IMG/VR virus record: IMGVR_UViG_2693429554_000019
DNA: 25,801 nucleotides
Direction: 5' to 3' (one strand)
DNA from: a virus
Taxonomy: Duplodnaviria > Heunggongvirae > Uroviricota > Caudoviricetes
Part shown: piece after piece, positions 1,449-8,418 of the stretch
Position numbering within the stretch: position 1 is the stretch's first letter
Layout of the letters: each line of letters starts with the position of its first letter
Notes under the pieces: generated by a model
What the model was told of the DNA's origin: nothing
The model's database searches: none
The model's input: only the letters and a program-made list of their open reading frames with translations
Program-made: the position numbers and the translations under genes

Positions 1449-2105
1449 CTATTTAACATACTTGACTGTTAAACTTATAATTTTACCAATTATTTCAATG
1501 TCTTCTATCTTGCATTCGAAGGCTCTGTTTCCACCCTCGACGAAGATTCTTCCACCGGGTAAACGAGTAATGTCACGGATCGTTATTTCGCCATCAATAC
1601 TTATTACCCATTTACCATCACGTATATCATCAAATTCTTTATCACAAATAAATTCAGAATTGTTATCTGTGATGACAAAAGGTTTTTTAAACGTAGAGGG
1701 TAGAAATTCCTTATCAAAAATATAAAAACCGTCTTTCTGCAATGCTCCATCAGACAATAAATATTTTTCTACTTCTATAGTATTTGTATTTGCTGATGCT
1801 TGCTTTGAACCATGCCCTGTTGTTAGCCAATTAAGCGAGGTGCCCGTTTCAAGGGCGCACTGGATTACCCAATCTGCTGGAAAAATATCACGCATATAGC
1901 GCGTTGCCATGGTGCTCTTAGAAACACCTAAATGATCACAGAGAGCCTGACGGGTACCGAACCCATATGCTTCAACTAAACGTTCTATGGCTTTCTTACC
2001 GCCGCTATTGAAATCCACAAGTCCTCCAAAGAAATCCAAAATCCGTTGACAGATTCCAAAAGCGATCTTAAAGTTGAACCAGAAGTGTTCTTTTGGAGCC
2101 TTCAC
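1449..2105 (-). CDS. cI: CI-type prophage repressor (186 CI-like: N-terminal HTH, C-terminal oligomerisation domain)
   Basis: Segment LVEAYGFGTRQALCDHLGVSKSTMATRYMRDIFPADWVIQCALETGTSLNWLTTG matches the CI-repressor HTH pattern. Divergent from the Apl/CII operon and directly upstream of int, as in 186. The track start is GTG (2103-2105); the true start may be an internal GTG preceded by GGAGGA, about 28 codons downstream. Confidence 0.75.
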   Translation of the reverse strand: MKAPKEHFWFNFKIAFGICQRILDFFGGLVDFNSGGKKAIERLVEAYGFGTRQALCDHLGVSKSTMATRYMRDIFPADWVIQCALETGTSLNWLTTGHGSKQASANTNTIEVEKYLLSDGALQKDGFYIFDKEFLPSTFKKPFVITDNNSEFICDKEFDDIRDGKWVISIDGEITIRDITRLPGGRIFVEGGNRAFECKIEDIEIIGKIISLTVKYVK

Positions 2106-3704: not shown

Positions 3705-3771
3705 CCAACTAATGAAATTAATGGCGTAAACCCGCCGGGTATCCCTTTATCTAAATTCAGGAGAATTGATT

Positions 3772-4005
3772 ATGCGTAATATTGAAACCCTCAAGACTAA
3801 AACCGGACCGGATGATGCAGGGCTTAATATTTTACTGACAGAGGCTCGTCTGGAAGAACGCCGGGCAAGGGCTGAAGCAATGGCAGCTCGCCTTGATAGC
3901 CTGGCGTGTCATATCACATCCCGCCAGCTAAACCACGTCGAAGCAGCAGAACTACTGCGTGTAACTGCTGAAGCAATCCAGAACGAAGCGCAGGAGATCC
4001 ACTAA
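3772..4005 (+). CDS. Hypothetical early protein (77 aa)
   Basis: ATG at 3772 with CAGGAGA 7 nt upstream (track start 3766 is TTG). Its stop overlaps the next start as TAATG. Confidence 0.5.
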   Translation: MRNIETLKTKTGPDDAGLNILLTEARLEERRARAEAMAARLDSLACHITSRQLNHVEAAELLRVTAEAIQNEAQEIH

Positions 4006-4232
4006 TGGCTGATGCAATGGATCTCGTACAGCAGCGCGTTGAAGAAGAACGCCAGCGCCATATCCGTGCTGCCCGTGCCAAAACGCCGGGCGTGTCCCGC
4101 GTGCTTTGCATTGAGTGTGAAGCGCCAATTCCGCCAGCACGCCGCCGCGCCATTCCAGGTGTGCAGCTTTGCATTACCTGTCAGGAAATCGCAGAGCTGA
4201 AAGGCAAACATTACAACGGAGGTGCTGTATGA
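4005..4232 (+). CDS. TraR/DksA-family C4 zinc-finger protein
   Basis: Two Cys pairs, CIECEAPIP and CITCQE, spaced as in TraR/DksA C4 fingers. 75 aa. AGGAG 8 nt upstream. Stop overlaps the Dam start (ATGA). Confidence 0.7.
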   Translation: MADAMDLVQQRVEEERQRHIRAARAKTPGVSRVLCIECEAPIPPARRRAIPGVQLCITCQEIAELKGKHYNGGAV

Positions 4233-5086
4233 GCACCATCCTGAAATGGGCGGGAAATAAAACCGCCGTAATGTCCGAACTGAAAAAACATCTTCCAGCT
4301 GGCCCGCGACTGGTTGAACCTTTCGCGGGTTCCTGTGCTGTGATGATGGAGACGGATTATCCCAGCTATCTGGTTGCGGATATTAATCCTGATTTAATCA
4401 ACCTCTATAAAAAGGTTGCCGCTGATTGTGAATCGTTTATATCTCGCGCCAGAGTTTTATTTAAGGAAGCAAACAGGGAGGTGGCTTATTACAACATAAG
4501 GCAGGAGTTTAATTACTCAACTGAAATTACTGATTTCATGAAAGCGGTATATTTCCTGTATCTCAATCGTCACGGTTACCGTGGGTTATGTCGCTATAAC
4601 AAGAGCGGGCATTTCAACATTCCCTACGGTAATTATAAAAATCCGTATTTCCCTGAAAAAGAAATTCGCGCATTTGCAGAGAAAGCCCAACGAGCAACGT
4701 TTATCTGCGCCAGCTTTGATGAAACGCTGGCGATGTTGAAGGCGGGGGATGTGGTGTATTGCGATCCGCCGTATGACGGTACGTTTTCCAGCTATCACAC
4801 TGATGGTTTCACTGAAGATGACCAGTATCACCTGGCATCCGTTCTTGAACATCGGTCATCAGAAGGACATCCGGTCATTGTTTCTAACAGTGACACATCC
4901 CTGATCCGTTCGCTGTATCGCAATTTTACTCACCACTACATCAAGGCAAAACGCAGCATCGGCGTAGCAGCTGGTGAGAGTAAATCTGCAACAGAAATCA
5001 TCGCTGTTTCTGGGGCGCGCTGCTGGGTGGGATTTGATCCTTCGCGTGGCGTGGATAGTTCTGCCGTGTACGGAGTGCGTGCATGA
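4229..5086 (+). CDS. dam: Orphan DNA adenine methyltransferase (Dam-like)
   Basis: Motif [10 protein letters not shown] and motif IV DPPY ([12 protein letters not shown]); C-terminal AKRSIG resembles the E. coli Dam C-terminus. No restriction-enzyme partner nearby. GGAGG 8 nt upstream of ATG 4229. Stop overlaps the A start (ATGA). Confidence 0.85.
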
Positions 5087-7497
5087 GCCATGCTGATATG
5101 AACAACTGCAGCGGCTTTAACGAGGCCGCCGCAGCATTCTCATGGAACAGCCCGAAAAAGGCGATTAACCCTTATCTGGACCCGGCGGAAGTTGCGCCGG
5201 TTTCTGCGCTTTCAAACCTGATCACTCTGTACGCTGCCGATAACAAGCAGGAACAACTGCGCCGCGAGGCACTGAGTGATCAGGTCTGGGAGCGTTATTT
5301 CTTTAATGAATCCCGTGATCCTGTCCAGCGCGAAATGGAGCAGGATAAGCTCATTAGCCGGGCAAAGCTGGTGCATGAGCAGCAGCGTTTTAATCCGGAC
5401 ATGGTCATACTGGCGGACGTTAACGCCCAGCCTTCCCATATCAGCAAGCCGCTGATGCAACGTATTGAATACTTCAGCAGCCTGGGCAGGCCAAAGGCTT
5501 ATTCCCGCTATTTGCGTGAGACGATTAAACCATGTCTGGAACGACTGGAGCATGTACGCGACAGCCAGCTATCTGCATCTTTTCGTTTTATGGCAAGCCA
5601 TGAAGGGCTGGACGGCCTGCTGATCTTGCCTGAAATGAGTCAGGATCAGGTGAAGCGCCTGTCTACCCTTGTTGCCGCGCATATGAGCATGTGCCTTGAT
5701 GCAGCTTGTGGTGATTTGTATGCCACCGATGACGTTAAGCCAGAAGAAATCCGCAAGACATGGGAAAGGGTGGCGGCGGAAACCCTGCGTCTGGATGTCA
5801 TCCCTCCTGCGTTTGAGCAACTCCGCCGGAAAAGAAACCGCCGTAAACCCGTACCCTATGAACTCATTCCGGGTTCGCTGGCGCGTATGTTGTGCGCCGA
5901 CTGGTGGTATCGGAAATTATGGAAGATGCGTTGCGAATGGCGGGAAGAGCAGTTGCGTGCTGTTTGCCTGGTCAGCAAAAAAGCATCTCCCTATGTCAGC
6001 TATGAAGCCGTGATGCATAAACGTGAGCAGCGCCGTAAGTCGCTGGAGTTTTTCCGTTCTCATGAACTGGTGAACGAAGACGGCGACACGCTGGATATGG
6101 AGGACGTGGTAAACGCCAGTAGTAGCAACCCGGCGCATCGCCGCAATGAGATGATGGCATGTGTTAAAGGTCTGGAGCTTATCGCGGAAATGCGCGGTGA
6201 CTGCGCCGTTTTCTACACCATCACCTGTCCGTCACGTTTCCATTCCACGCTAAATAACGGCAGGCCCAACCCGACTTGGACAAATGCGACGGTAAGACAA
6301 AGCAGTGATTATCTGGTCGGCATGTTTGCTGCATTTCGTAAGGCGATGTACAAAGCCGGATTGCGCTGGTATGGCGTGCGGGTGGCTGAGCCGCATCATG
6401 ACGGTACAGTTCACTGGCACCTGTTGTGTTTTATGCGCAAAAAAGATCGCCGCGCCATTACTGCTTTGTTGCGTAAGTTTGCCATTCGTGAAGACCGCGA
6501 GGAGCTGGGTAATAACACAGGACCACGCTTTAAGTCTGAGCTGATAAACCCGCGCAAAGGTACACCAACAAGCTACATCGCGAAATACATCAGTAAGAAC
6601 ATTGACGGGCGTGGTCTGGCTGGCGAGATCAGCAAGGAAACGGGTAAATCTCTGCGTGATAACGCTGAATACGTTAATGCCTGGGCGTCTCTGCATCGTG
6701 TTCAGCAATTCCGCTTCTTTGGCATTCCGGGGCGTCAGGCTTACCGTGAACTGCGATTGCTGGCTGGTCAGGCGGCAAGGCAACAGGGTGACAAAAAAGC
6801 AGGTGCGCCGGTACTGGATAACCCGCGCCTTGATGCCATTCTGGCTGCAGCTGATGCTGGTTGCTTTGCCACCTACATCATGAAGCAGGGCGGCGTACTG
6901 GTTCCCCGTAAATATCACCTCATCAGAACCGCTTATGAAATCAACGAAGAGCCGACCGCCTATGGCGATCACGGTATTCGTATTTATGGCATCTGGTCAC
7001 CCATTGCAGAGGGCAAGATCTGCACTCATGCAGTGAAGTGGAAAATGGTCCGTAAAGCCGTTGACGTTCAGGAGGCGGCAGCCGACCAGGGCGCTTGCGC
7101 CCCTTGGACTCGTGGCAATAACTGTCCCCTTGCTGAAAATTTGCCCCAACAAGGGAAAGACAAATCAGCTGATGGGGATACCAGAACGGATATCACCCGT
7201 ATGAATGACAAGGAGTTGCACGATTACCTGCACAGTATGAGCAAAAAAGAGCGCCGGGAACTGACAGCAAGATTACGCCTGGTGAAACCGAAACGGCGTA
7301 AAGACTACAAACAGCGAATTACAGACCATCAGCGACAGCAGCTTGTCTATGAACTGAAGTCCAGAGGATTTGACGGCAGCGAGAAAGAGGTCGATTTACT
7401 CCTTCGCGGTGGCAGTATTCCGTCAGGAGCAGGCCTGCGTATCTTCTATCGGAACCAGCGTTTGCAGGAAGATGATAAGTGGCGGGATCTGTATTAA
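5083..7497 (+). CDS. A: Replication initiator A (rolling-circle HUH endonuclease, P2/186 gpA family)
   Basis: 804 aa. HUH motif in [15 protein letters not shown] and paired catalytic tyrosines in [11 protein letters not shown]. Position after the early operon matches P2/186. Confidence 0.9.
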
Positions 7498-7589: not shown

Positions 7590-7609
7590 TACTGTAAATA
7601 TAAACAGTG
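7590..7609. promoter_or_regulatory. LexA (SOS) box, CTGT-N8-ACAG
   Basis: TACTGTAAATATAAACAGTG read directly from the sequence: CTGT at 7592-7595, AT-rich 8-nt spacer, ACAG at 7604-7607. Lies 42-61 nt upstream of the ATG at 7651 in an AT-rich promoter-like stretch. Confidence 0.6.
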
Positions 7610-7650
7610 GTTATACATACAGTATTTCTTGTGGTGTCATAGGAGGAAAG

Positions 7651-7839
7651 ATGCAGGACTATTTTTTGGAGTCTTTGAAGCTCCAGCGCATTGATTTTTT
7701 TCTTAAGCTTGTAGCGGCTAGTGAGTGTAGTGATGAAGAGAAGGGGCTGGCTCTGCAGTGGGTTTCTGAACTAACAGATGAACTCATGGCAAAAATCAGA
7801 ACCCACGAATACAACCGCTCAATGGATGTCATCAGCTGA
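7651..7839 (+). CDS. Small SOS-regulated protein (62 aa), possibly Tum-like antirepressor moiety
   Basis: ATG at 7651 preceded by AGGAGGAAAG; downstream of the LexA box. The track ORF from 7549 is an untranslated N-terminal extension. Function inferred only from context with the DinI-like gene. Confidence 0.45.
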   Translation: MQDYFLESLKLQRIDFFLKLVAASECSDEEKGLALQWVSELTDELMAKIRTHEYNRSMDVIS

Positions 7840-7849
7840 GGTGACTTTT

Positions 7850-8083
7850 ATGCGCATTGAAATAATGATCGATAAAGAGCAGAAGATTAGCCAGTCTATC
7901 CTGGACGCCCTTGAATCCGAGCTTTACCGCAATCTGCGCCCCCTGTATCCCAAAACGGTAATTCGCATCCGCAAAGGTAGCTCTAACGGTGTGGAACTGA
8001 CAGGACTGCAACTGGACGAAGAAAGAAAACAAGTGATGAAAATTATGCAGAAGGTGTGGGAAGACGACAGCTGGCTGCATTAA
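7850..8083 (+). CDS. DinI-family protein (77 aa)
   Basis: MRIEIMIDKE...ILDALESEL...KVWEDDSWLH parallels E. coli DinI (MRIEVTIAK...IDALAGEL...ETWESADDWF). GAGGTG 6 nt upstream of ATG 7850. Co-directional with the preceding ORF, so probably under the same LexA box. Confidence 0.7.
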   Translation: MRIEIMIDKEQKISQSILDALESELYRNLRPLYPKTVIRIRKGSSNGVELTGLQLDEERKQVMKIMQKVWEDDSWLH

Positions 8084-8099: not shown

Positions 8100-8418
8100 A
8101 GAATTTATTCTGATGGAGGTTAGTTTGGACAACGAGTGAAATAAGGTGGGCGGTCATTTTGATAAATGATCGTCCGCTTTGTGCCAGATATAGTCATTCG
8201 AACCCTGAGAGTTACACTTTTAAGTGATTCAGGGTATGCGCTTACTGGTTACGAATATTGTGCCAGAATCATGTGATTTGATGATTGCCGCTTTGCTTTC
8301 GAGCCAGTAAGTGCTCCACGTTCGCTAACGAATACTCAGGGCATGCAGAAAACTGCTGACTATATTTCTTTCGAAGAACGTGGAATGCATACCAATCCCC
8401 GATAAAAAGGAGTTGGTG
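8100..8418 (+). ncRNA. Candidate IS110-type non-coding (bridge-like) RNA in the left end
   Basis: About 320 nt non-coding region directly 5' of the transposase. Imperfect inverted repeat TCCACGTTCG (8315-8324) / CGAAGAACGTGGA (8372-8384). Hypothesis only. Confidence 0.2.

Follow-up and report, generated by a model that had tools for sequence, protein, structure and literature searches.

The Dam-TraR module examined here is already known: very common enterobacterial prophages of the 186/Fels-2 type carry it as their standard early replication operon. It consists of four chained genes in the order DUF2732, TraR/DksA C4 zinc finger, D12/Dam methyltransferase and gene A, and the identity of these four parts is nearly certain. 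The module was analysed within a stretch of phage DNA of 25,801 nucleotides, referred to below as the window. The region that carries it very likely forms the distal portion of a pR-type early lytic operon, belonging to a 186/Fels-2-like temperate phage of the P2 family (Peduoviridae, Felsduovirus) that resides in an enterobacterial chromosome as a prophage. By analogy with phage 186, it is likely that translation of the methyltransferase gene is functionally coupled to that of the replication initiator.

The module, its promoter and its relatives

All features given with coordinates below lie on the plus strand unless otherwise indicated. The first gene of the chain (3772..4005) encodes a DUF2732 protein of 77 aa, which matched PF10809 (1.5e-29) and phrog_128 and is a homologue of P2 Orf80 (37% identity) and of the product of the 186 DUF2732 gene. 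It is followed by the genes for a TraR/DksA-family C4 zinc-finger protein of 75 aa (4005..4232) and for an orphan Dam-family (D12 class) N6-adenine DNA methyltransferase of 285 aa (4229..5086). The last gene is gene A (5083..7497), which encodes a rolling-circle replication initiator/nickase of 804 aa (PF05840, 7.8e-127) with 35% identity to the A protein of 186 and 31% to that of P2. The families assigned by Pfam, NCBIfam, PHROG and PADLOC were consistent with one another.

Upstream of the chain, a consensus scan revealed a putative early lytic promoter (pR-like) at 2046..2074, between cI and apl. Its sequence, TTGACA-17-TAAAGT, has 10 of 12 matches to the consensus, and its position is that of pR in phage 186. 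This promoter probably drives the whole early operon, including the Dam-TraR module. A scan for intrinsic terminators from pR to gene A yielded none that was convincing.

At the nucleotide level, the module was 97.3% identical to that of Salmonella phage RE2010, in which the same four genes are annotated, and 99.9% identical to those in prophages of E. coli ML35 and others. It was present in 1245 of 5426 complete E. coli genomes, about a quarter, and many Salmonella and Klebsiella carry it as well. In E. coli, the four genes are annotated in order as 'DUF2732', 'TraR/DksA family transcriptional regulator', 'DNA adenine methylase' and 'replication endonuclease'; standard pipelines thus annotate the module correctly. 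The exact Dam protein was found on 429 contigs and belongs to a 90%-identity cluster (n=4038), one member of which is annotated as the retron Ec67 Dam. The family name of the methyltransferase goes back to this retron-Ec67 Dam, in 1990.

The same gene, in the same slot and with the same overlaps, occurs in Fels-2 (STM2730), SopEΦ (orf8), RE2010 (gp10) and the 186-related prophage φR67 ('retron Ec67 DNA adenine methylase'). The slot shared with these phages has a DksA-like zinc finger (or an exonuclease) on one side and gene A on the other. The Dam protein was 97.9% identical to that of RE2010 and 73% identical to those of Fels-2 and SopEΦ, and this copy is set apart from its relatives by Val, Phe and Pro at variable tail positions, which is nothing of substance.

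Orphan GATC methyltransferases are also found in other phages of Dam-positive hosts, namely P1 (Dmt), T2/T4 (Dam) and the Stx phages VT2-Sa/933W (Dam), and these are regarded as self-protection or regulatory enzymes. However, they belong to other lineages and contexts. The enzyme studied here was 36% identical to the Dam domain of P1 Dmt, which is fused to a second domain, and 23% identical to T2 Dam. None of them is coupled to a rolling-circle initiator, as is likely for the present one.

Junctions of the chain and probable coupling to gene A

The first-pass annotation had described three stop/start overlaps, TAATG at 4003-4007 and ATGA at 4229-4232 and 5083-5086, and all three are present at these positions. 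At junction 1 (3992..4007), the Shine-Dalgarno (SD) sequence AGGAG (3992-3996) precedes the TAATG, in which one base is common to the DUF2732 stop TAA and the zinc-finger ATG; this 1-nt overlap is also annotated in RE2010, P2, 186 and Fels-2. At junction 2 (4218..4232), GGAGG (4218-4222) precedes the ATGA that forms the zinc-finger stop and the Dam start. At junction 3 (5072..5086), GGAG (5072-5075) precedes the ATGA that forms the Dam stop and the gene A start. All three downstream starts have an SD of their own, with a spacing of 6-8 nt. A lone overlap of 1 or 4 nt is ordinary in phage operons; in the ML35 prophage copy, for example, the portal and terminase genes overlap by 1 nt.

The overlaps might reflect genome compaction only, with each gene translated from its own SD and no functional coupling to A. 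The good SD sequences before all three downstream starts are in line with this explanation, and one source describes such overlaps as common between co-oriented genes, although it also regards unidirectional pairs that overlap as tightly coupled (PMC10666635). In addition, the Dam gene lacks the A overlap in two other Peduoviridae genera and stands apart from A in Kp4867-1 and Kp4873-2. Nevertheless, the Dam/A overlap (4 or 10 nt) was kept in 9 of the 9 relatives compared, despite a protein divergence of 28% (Dam identity down to 72%) and a switch of the start codon from ATG to GTG: it measures 4 nt with an ATG here and 10 nt with a GTG in the Fels-2 group. The 4-nt overlap between the upstream gene and Dam was likewise found in all nine phages, which represent four Peduoviridae genera. 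Because it is conserved across relatives, the overlap chain appears, on sequence comparison, to go beyond commonplace compaction.

P2 and 186 likewise retain the chain although the genes upstream of A are unrelated, which argues against compaction as well. In both phages (orf84-A in 186, Orf83-A in P2), small non-essential overlapping ORFs precede gene A and the last stop overlaps the A start; the 186 genes in the Dam slot are marked 'not essential' in the 186 record. The slot holds a PAPS-reductase-like gene in 186 (plus an exonuclease and DUF5405) and DUF5405 in P2, compared with Dam here. The slot before gene A is thus a swap site for Dam, PAPS-reductase-like, DUF5405 and exonuclease genes, and whichever gene occupies it seems to control whether the replication initiator is translated.

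The proposal that the chain is translationally coupled to gene A finds its precedent in the same record, which states for orf84-A that 'translation to end of orf84 appears necessary for translation of A protein'. Just inside A, from +85 to +112, the record also places the terminator tM1, which is expected to end transcription in the absence of A translation. Both points weigh against compaction alone. At the corresponding place in the window, about 100 nt inside gene A, there is a weak hairpin with a partly T-rich run (5178..5204; -13.8 kcal/mol, z = -0.69, not significant), whose likeness to tM1 is a positional analogy only.

Minimum-energy RNA folds had the SD or the AUG paired at all three junctions and likewise at the DUF2732 start. 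However, the folds at the junctions did not exceed shuffled controls in stability (z = -0.8 to -1.6), indicating that they are no evidence for coupling, and this result fits compaction. Taken together, we consider compaction alone rather unlikely and favor a functional coupling from Dam to A. Under such coupling, ribosomes that finish the Dam gene would start A either by termination-reinitiation or by unmasking of the A start. Considering that the Dam gene ends inside the start of A, the methylase and the initiator would be made together, and A would depend on upstream translation.

Possible functions of the zinc-finger protein and the methyltransferase

The zinc-finger protein had been assigned to the TraR/DksA type, and profile searches agreed, with scores above the cut-offs for PF01258 (43.5 bits, cut-off 24.9) and for TIGR02419, the 'phage/conjugal plasmid TraR family' profile (65.8 bits, cut-off 59.7). 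The protein stayed below the thresholds of the F TraR, YbiI and DksA equivalog models. Structure matches were obtained with TraR in the PDB (2.6e-9) and with YbiI (5e-11). The zinc-finger cysteines C35, C38, C56 and C59 aligned with C37, C40, C58 and C61 of TraR, and R46-R47 aligned with R48-R49 of TraR, a pair that contacts the rim helices and β'Si3 (PMC9239242). The protein was 68% identical to CP81 of phage 186 and 47% identical to P2 Orf82, and its gene occupies the identical operon position in both phages. Size, the C4 finger, D3 and D6, and the R48-R49 equivalent are common to this protein, P2 Orf82, 186 CP81, F TraR and lambda Orf73.

In the TraR family, a DxxDxA motif reaches the active site of RNA polymerase. 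The N-terminus of the present protein, MADAMDLV, keeps D3 and D6, whereas position 8 is Val (D3-x-x-D6-x-V8), giving DxxDxV instead of DxxDxA. Ala8 is also missing in P2 Orf82, which is active in vitro but weaker (PMC9239242). Orf82, TraR and Orf73 are RNA polymerase-binding proteins that mimic the combination of DksA and ppGpp; P2 Orf82, which is expressed from Pe together with the replication genes, has been shown to bind the polymerase, to inhibit rrnB P1 and to complement ΔdksA (PMC9239242). These experiments on a homologue back the earlier suggestion that the small TraR-like factor probably binds RNA polymerase, and from P2 Orf82 we infer such binding for the protein of the window. After derepression, the TraR-like protein would occupy the secondary channel of the host RNA polymerase and dampen rRNA and ribosomal-protein promoters, and the host would be diverted to phage production, as was demonstrated for P2 Orf82 and lambda Orf73.

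For the methyltransferase, the first-pass annotation had named both anti-restriction and regulation as plausible roles. The enzyme would methylate GATC. The extra Dam would supplement limiting host Dam, and the fast-replicating phage DNA would leave the cell fully methylated. Full methylation would shield the phage DNA from GATC-directed restriction in the next host, as well as from the action of MutH/SeqA on un- or hemimethylated DNA. Whether such self-protection or 'top-up' is the main role of the methylase appears to us evenly balanced. An anti-restriction function is the general view of phage Dam (bioRxiv 10.1101/2020.06.22.160242). The usual hosts are Dam-positive, and that a second Dam would protect the phage is argued rather than demonstrated. 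In the searchable literature, we found no experiment on the methyltransferase, the zinc-finger protein or their close relatives, and none on any P2-family Dam. In methylomes, prophage Dam homologues were indistinguishable from host Dam (PMC6602927), and one prophage Dam-homologue gene was untranscribed in the lysogen (PMC4659465). In Dam-positive hosts, a second, phage-borne Dam would bear on mismatch-repair evasion and restriction escape, and also on whether retron defences responsive to GATC methylation in msDNA are triggered.

Alternatively, the methyltransferase could mainly be a regulator, with GATC methylation at phage or host promoters tuning lysogeny, excision or replication. Regulatory effects have reportedly been seen with the Stx phage 933W Dam, and Dam is likewise said to affect Salmonella prophages. 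According to a review, excision of SopEΦ, the relative mentioned above with a 73%-identical copy of the Dam gene, is favored by Dam methylation (PMC7380047). The putative pR promoter has a GATC in its spacer (2064-2067), but a single GATC in a 29-bp promoter is near chance at one per about 270 bp. The inferred origin (nick-site region) lies inside gene A at 7097..7125, as judged from similarity to the P2 ori. No GATC was found within about 70 bp of it and there was no cluster, which does not suggest replication control via origin methylation and counts against the regulatory explanation. The window as a whole contains 95 GATC sites (observed/expected 0.78), which is unremarkable beside other 4-bp palindromes, and it gave no signal of GATC avoidance or enrichment.

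Two further points stand against a mainly regulatory function. Unrelated immunity regions are found beside the same Dam module, a small repressor of the P2 C type in RE2010 and one of the 186 CI type here, so a fixed promoter target is unlikely. Moreover, the Dam gene belongs to the lytic operon, and its expression is not expected in a lysogen. A mainly regulatory methyltransferase is therefore unlikely in our judgment.

Predicted specificity and orphan status of the methyltransferase

Dam-class membership of the methyltransferase, as claimed in the first-pass annotation, was borne out by PF02086 (1e-76; 258.4 bits against a cut-off of 22, with the full model covered), by TIGR00571 'dam' (323.8 bits, cut-off 114.85) and by matches to E. 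coli Dam structures (7e-74). The cut-off of the host-Dam equivalog NF008152 (PRK10904), 441 bits, was missed with 291.4 bits. By these profile scores, the enzyme is a phage paralogue and not the housekeeping chromosomal Dam orthologue.

The enzyme was 48% identical to E. coli Dam (EcoDam, PDB 2G1P); both are orphan enzymes of the D12-class fold family, and DPPY as well as D54 and W10 of the EcoDam AdoMet site are conserved. Unlike EcoDam, it is phage-borne and encoded in a lytic operon. It further differs in having Asn for R137, FAGSC instead of FVGAG as motif I, a 5-residue deletion after DPPY, and a different and longer C-terminal tail. Of the two motifs named earlier, DPPY was found at aa 179-182 (nt 4763-4774) and FAGS at aa 32-35 (nt 4322-4333); the latter needs correction in that it is part of motif I, FAGSC (aa 32-36). 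In this motif (F32-A-G34-S-C36), the second Gly of the canonical FxGxG is replaced by Cys, which is invariant in 102 clade members; the same position is Leu in the active T2 Dam. D51 aligned with the AdoMet-site residue D54 of EcoDam, the acidic residue of motif II.

Six of the seven GATC contacts of EcoDam are kept in the phage enzyme (K9, Y119, L122, R124, P134 and Y138), as judged from the residue roles in GATC recognition described for EcoDam (PMC4417163). The seventh, N120, is replaced by Arg118, which is invariant in all 102 clade members. On this conservation, we predict with high confidence that the methyltransferase is specific for GATC.

A Dam-family enzyme of changed or relaxed specificity, not simply GATC, is very improbable. 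Such a change would be in keeping with the invariant Arg118, the FAGSC motif, a tail motif (WxGxDxxxGxD) missing from characterised Dams and the score below the host-Dam equivalog cut-off (291 bits vs 441). However, the residues that discriminate G:C and A:T (R124, L122, P134, K9 and Y138) and the intercalating Y119 are all kept, and position 120 is already variable among active GATC enzymes, being Asn in E. coli and P1 and Ser in T2. Furthermore, the family founder is said to have been published as encoding 'Dam methylase functions', words that the title of Hsu et al. (1990) reportedly applies to the retron-Ec67 founder and that would imply GATC methylation for it.

The methyltransferase had also been called an orphan without a cognate nuclease, and its surroundings agree with this description. 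Its neighbours are the zinc-finger gene and gene A, there is no nuclease gene within the operon, and the best PADLOC match was the 'orphan methyltransferase' model (oMTase PDLC03729, 3.4e-112). Among phages with 97-99.9% identical Dam modules, the downstream cargo differs, comprising AIPR, a P-loop NTPase or hypotheticals. It is extremely improbable that the methyltransferase is half of a restriction-modification system with its nuclease among the cargo ORFs at 9842-12891: four of these ORFs have no Pfam, PADLOC or NCBIfam match, but the cargo lies at least 4.7 kb away, past gene A, a LexA-controlled operon and an IS element, with some ORFs on the opposite strand; relatives with the 97-99.9% identical module (RE2010, ML35) have wholly different genes there, and the cargo block is found on its own in other E. 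coli. A hidden nuclease in the cargo ORFs was sought with Pfam, PADLOC, PHROGs and NCBIfam and rejected, as only PHROGs of unknown function were obtained and linkage to Dam was refuted by the relatives.

The invariant N120 to Arg change and the conserved WxGxDxxxGxD tail are loose ends, and both set the P2-family Dam clade apart from every characterised Dam. The tail motif of the methyltransferase, W266-x-G-x-D-x-x-x-G-x-D276 (5024..5056), is clade-specific and absent from the E. coli, P1 and T2 Dam proteins. It was more than 90% conserved in 101 homologues, with variable intervening residues and synonymous changes in its Gly codons. The motif, retained by selection on the protein, also occurs in a 40%-identical Dam whose gene does not adjoin gene A. 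An origin of the tail as a remnant of the C-terminus of P2 Orf83 or 186 orf84 was considered and rejected, as no common motif was seen. An AlphaFold2 model of the methylase, built from a 65-sequence alignment, had a mean pLDDT of 66, with residues 228-285 below 50, indicating that it was too poor for any statement on the C-terminal tail. It is conceivable, though improbable, that the tail peptide is a docking motif tethering the methylase to gpA or the host replisome, or that Arg118 and the tail alter the preference for flanking sequence or for hemimethylated versus unmethylated DNA. If the tethering were true, methylation would be linked to rolling-circle replication physically, in addition to the translational coupling.

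Identity of the methyltransferase and the zinc-finger protein

The module consists of four plus-strand ORFs, encoding DUF2732 (3772-4005, 77 aa), a TraR/DksA-type zinc finger (4005-4232, 75 aa), a Dam-class methyltransferase (4229-5086, 285 aa) and the replication initiator, gene A (5083-7497, 804 aa). The methyltransferase covered the entire D12 model (PF02086, 1e-76) and scored 323.8 bits against TIGR00571 'dam' (cut-off 114.85), and it missed the host-Dam equivalog cut-off (291 versus 441). It matched the structures of Escherichia coli Dam (EcoDam) at 7e-74, with 48% identity over 254 aligned residues. EcoDam reads GATC through R124, L122, P134, K9 and Y138, together with the intercalating Y119 (Horton and colleagues, PMC4417163); all six residues were kept in the alignment to EcoDam, as were DPPY and the AdoMet-site Asp. 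The FAGS motif noticed in the first-pass annotation was present and reads FAGSC, Cys replacing the second Gly of the canonical FxGxG motif I. This motif was invariant in 102 members of the clade of P2-family Dam homologues, and the DNA-contact residue N120 of EcoDam was Arg in 102 of the 102 examined (Arg118 here, 4580-4582). Since both features are invariant, and the active T2 Dam has Leu at the position of the Cys, the sequence points to a functional rather than a decaying enzyme.

A C-terminal tail motif, W266-x-G-x-D-x-x-x-G-x-D276 (5024-5056), was more than 90% conserved in the clade, while the intervening residues varied freely. Its Gly codons changed synonymously, which indicates selection at the protein level. 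The motif recurred in the 40%-identical Dam of Klebsiella phage Kp4873-2, which belongs to another genus and in which gene A is not adjacent, and was absent from the E. coli, P1 and T2 Dam proteins. The AlphaFold model was too poor over the tail for interpretation. The tail and the invariant N120R are the sole features that might conceal novelty, for example tethering to gpA or the replisome, which we regard as improbable.

Profile searching assigned the 77-aa protein to DUF2732 (PF10809, 1.5e-29). The 75-aa protein exceeded the curated cut-offs of PF01258 and TIGR02419 ('phage/conjugal plasmid C4 zinc finger, TraR family') and matched the solved structures of TraR (2.6e-9) and YbiI (5e-11). 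Its cysteines are C35/C38/C56/C59, its N-terminus carries D3-x-x-D6, and R46-R47 align with R48-R49 of TraR. Identity was 68% to the DksA-like protein of phage 186 and 47% to P2 Orf82. P2 Orf82, TraR and lambda Orf73 bind RNA polymerase, complement a dksA null and inhibit rRNA and ribosomal-protein promoters, and lambda Orf73 increases burst size (PMC9239242). By analogy, the mechanism of the window protein can be taken from these experiments. The window protein has DxxDx(non-Ala), as does P2 Orf82, for which it went with lower in vitro activity (PMC9239242).

Overlapping junctions and distribution of the module

The stop/start overlaps were exactly as first read, TAATG at 4003-4007 and ATGA at 4229-4232 and 5083-5086. 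Every downstream start is preceded by a separate Shine-Dalgarno sequence, 6-8 nt away (AGGAG 3992-3996, GGAGG 4218-4222, GGAG 5072-5075). Junctions were compared among nine phages of four genera with Dam identity down to 72%, the relatives being RE2010, ML35 (the prophage of an E. coli strain), Fels-2, SopEΦ, SEN8, one Yersinia phage and two Klebsiella phages. The 4-nt overlap at the Dam start was found in all nine, even with an exonuclease or an unrelated ORF upstream, and the A start (ATG or GTG) was overlapped by 4 or 10 nt, again in 9/9. Two genera further removed lacked the overlap between Dam and A.

The overlapping chain recurs in P2 and 186, where the interval from the TraR-like gene to A is filled differently, by Orf83/DUF5405 in P2 and by an exonuclease, DUF5405 and the PAPS-reductase-like orf84 in 186. 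According to the 186 record, translation of the A protein appears to need translation through the end of orf84, and the terminator tM1, just inside A, is expected to act if A is untranslated. This dependence is a direct precedent for the coupling to gene A proposed in the first-pass annotation, and functional coupling of Dam to A is likely. The Shine-Dalgarno sequence or AUG was paired in the minimum-energy fold at each junction, with stability no greater than that of shuffled sequence. A hairpin at 5178-5204 (CCGGCG/CGCCGG stem, then TTTCTGCGCTTTC), ~100 nt into gene A and equivalent in position to tM1, was weak and no more stable than shuffled controls. The slot upstream of A is a swap site in Peduoviridae (3891-5748 in the 186 record, 3770-4045 in that of P2 and 120-704 in that of SEN8), holding Dam, DnaQ-like exonuclease, DUF5405 and PAPS-reductase-like genes in varied combinations, the last ORF always overlapping the A start.

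The 1.5-kb module was 97.3% identical to phage RE2010 and many Klebsiella P2-like phages and 99.9% identical to prophages of E. coli ML35 and others. Of the 5426 complete E. coli genomes, 1245 carried the module, and its annotation was in every case 'DUF2732 / TraR-DksA family regulator / DNA adenine methylase / replication endonuclease'. The exact Dam protein occurred in 429 contigs. Its cluster numbers 4038 sequences and includes one with an older designation, 'retron EC67 DNA adenine methylase'; the Fels-2 and SopEΦ copies are annotated by similarity to that protein. The initial reading was thus correct, for a module already known and routinely annotated. Our literature search found no study in which the biological role of a P2-family Dam had been tested.

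Expression and role of the methyltransferase

A putative pR-like promoter (TTGACA-17-TAAAGT, 2046-2074) lies at the position of 186 pR, with no convincing terminator between it and gene A. Expression of the module is therefore expected upon induction or infection, and silence in the lysogen. In agreement with this expectation, a prophage Dam homologue was reported to be untranscribed in a lysogen (PMC4659465).

On the most economical reading, host Dam would be limiting while the phage replicates as a rolling circle, and the phage Dam would top it up and bring the 95 GATC sites of the window to full modification. GATC frequency in the window is ordinary (observed/expected 0.78). Control of the promoter by GATC methylation has only anecdotal support: a GATC at 2064-2067 lies in the pR-like spacer directly upstream of the -10 element, which is compatible with chance, and relatives with the same Dam carry different immunity regions, which argues against it. 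Control of the origin is without support from the sequence, no GATC occurring within ~70 bp of the inferred ori-like site at 7097-7125. The phage enzyme may carry a cost, as the retron-Sen2 toxin is triggered when Dam over-methylates msDNA (bioRxiv 10.1101/2020.06.22.160242).

Orphan status, cargo block and genome layout

The methyltransferase was also proposed to be an orphan. It lies between the zinc finger and gene A, no nuclease is linked to it, and its best PADLOC model was 'orphan methyltransferase' (3.4e-112). The sole unassigned ORFs nearby (9842-10306, +; 10485-11210, 11394-12203 and 12553-12891, all -) are separated from the methyltransferase gene by gene A, the SOS operon and an IS element. 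They lie in a cargo block (9684-12891) within the interval from the SOS operon to the portal gene, where P2 has its old/tin hotspot. These ORFs had no match in Pfam, PADLOC or NCBIfam, and the only PHROG matches were phrog_19013 and phrog_31894, both of unknown function. The block was 100% identical to 'hypothetical protein x3' of other E. coli, where it is present as an independent unit. Cargo differs among relatives with 97-99.9% identical Dam modules; because RE2010 has an AIPR protein there and E. coli ML35 a P-loop NTPase, the block may represent a defence or exclusion cassette not described before.

The window starts with minus-strand genes for a tyrosine integrase and a CI repressor of the 186 type, followed rightward by apl/cox-like, CII (CP76), Fil and DUF5347 genes, the module, a DinI/Tum-like gene, the variable region and P2-type portal, terminase and capsid genes. 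This gene order makes the window a P2-family prophage whose immunity and early region are 186-like. A LexA-box-like perfect palindrome, CTGTAAATATAAACAG (7592-7607), lies upstream of a small phrog_698 ORF and the DinI/Tum-like gene (~7651-7839 and 7778-8083); this arrangement (7592-8083) matches p95-tum, the antirepressor operon of 186 that is under SOS control. An IS110-family insertion sequence (~8193-9683; transposase ORF 8380-9657, DEDD_Tnp_IS110 and Transposase_20) marks the end of homology to the ML35 prophage, with the cargo block directly downstream. Between the integrase and cI, a 63-aa ORF (1242-1433, -), hypothetical in the ML35 prophage annotation, has a hydrophobic N-terminus and several cysteines, and its product could be a secreted protein or lipoprotein for lysogenic conversion.
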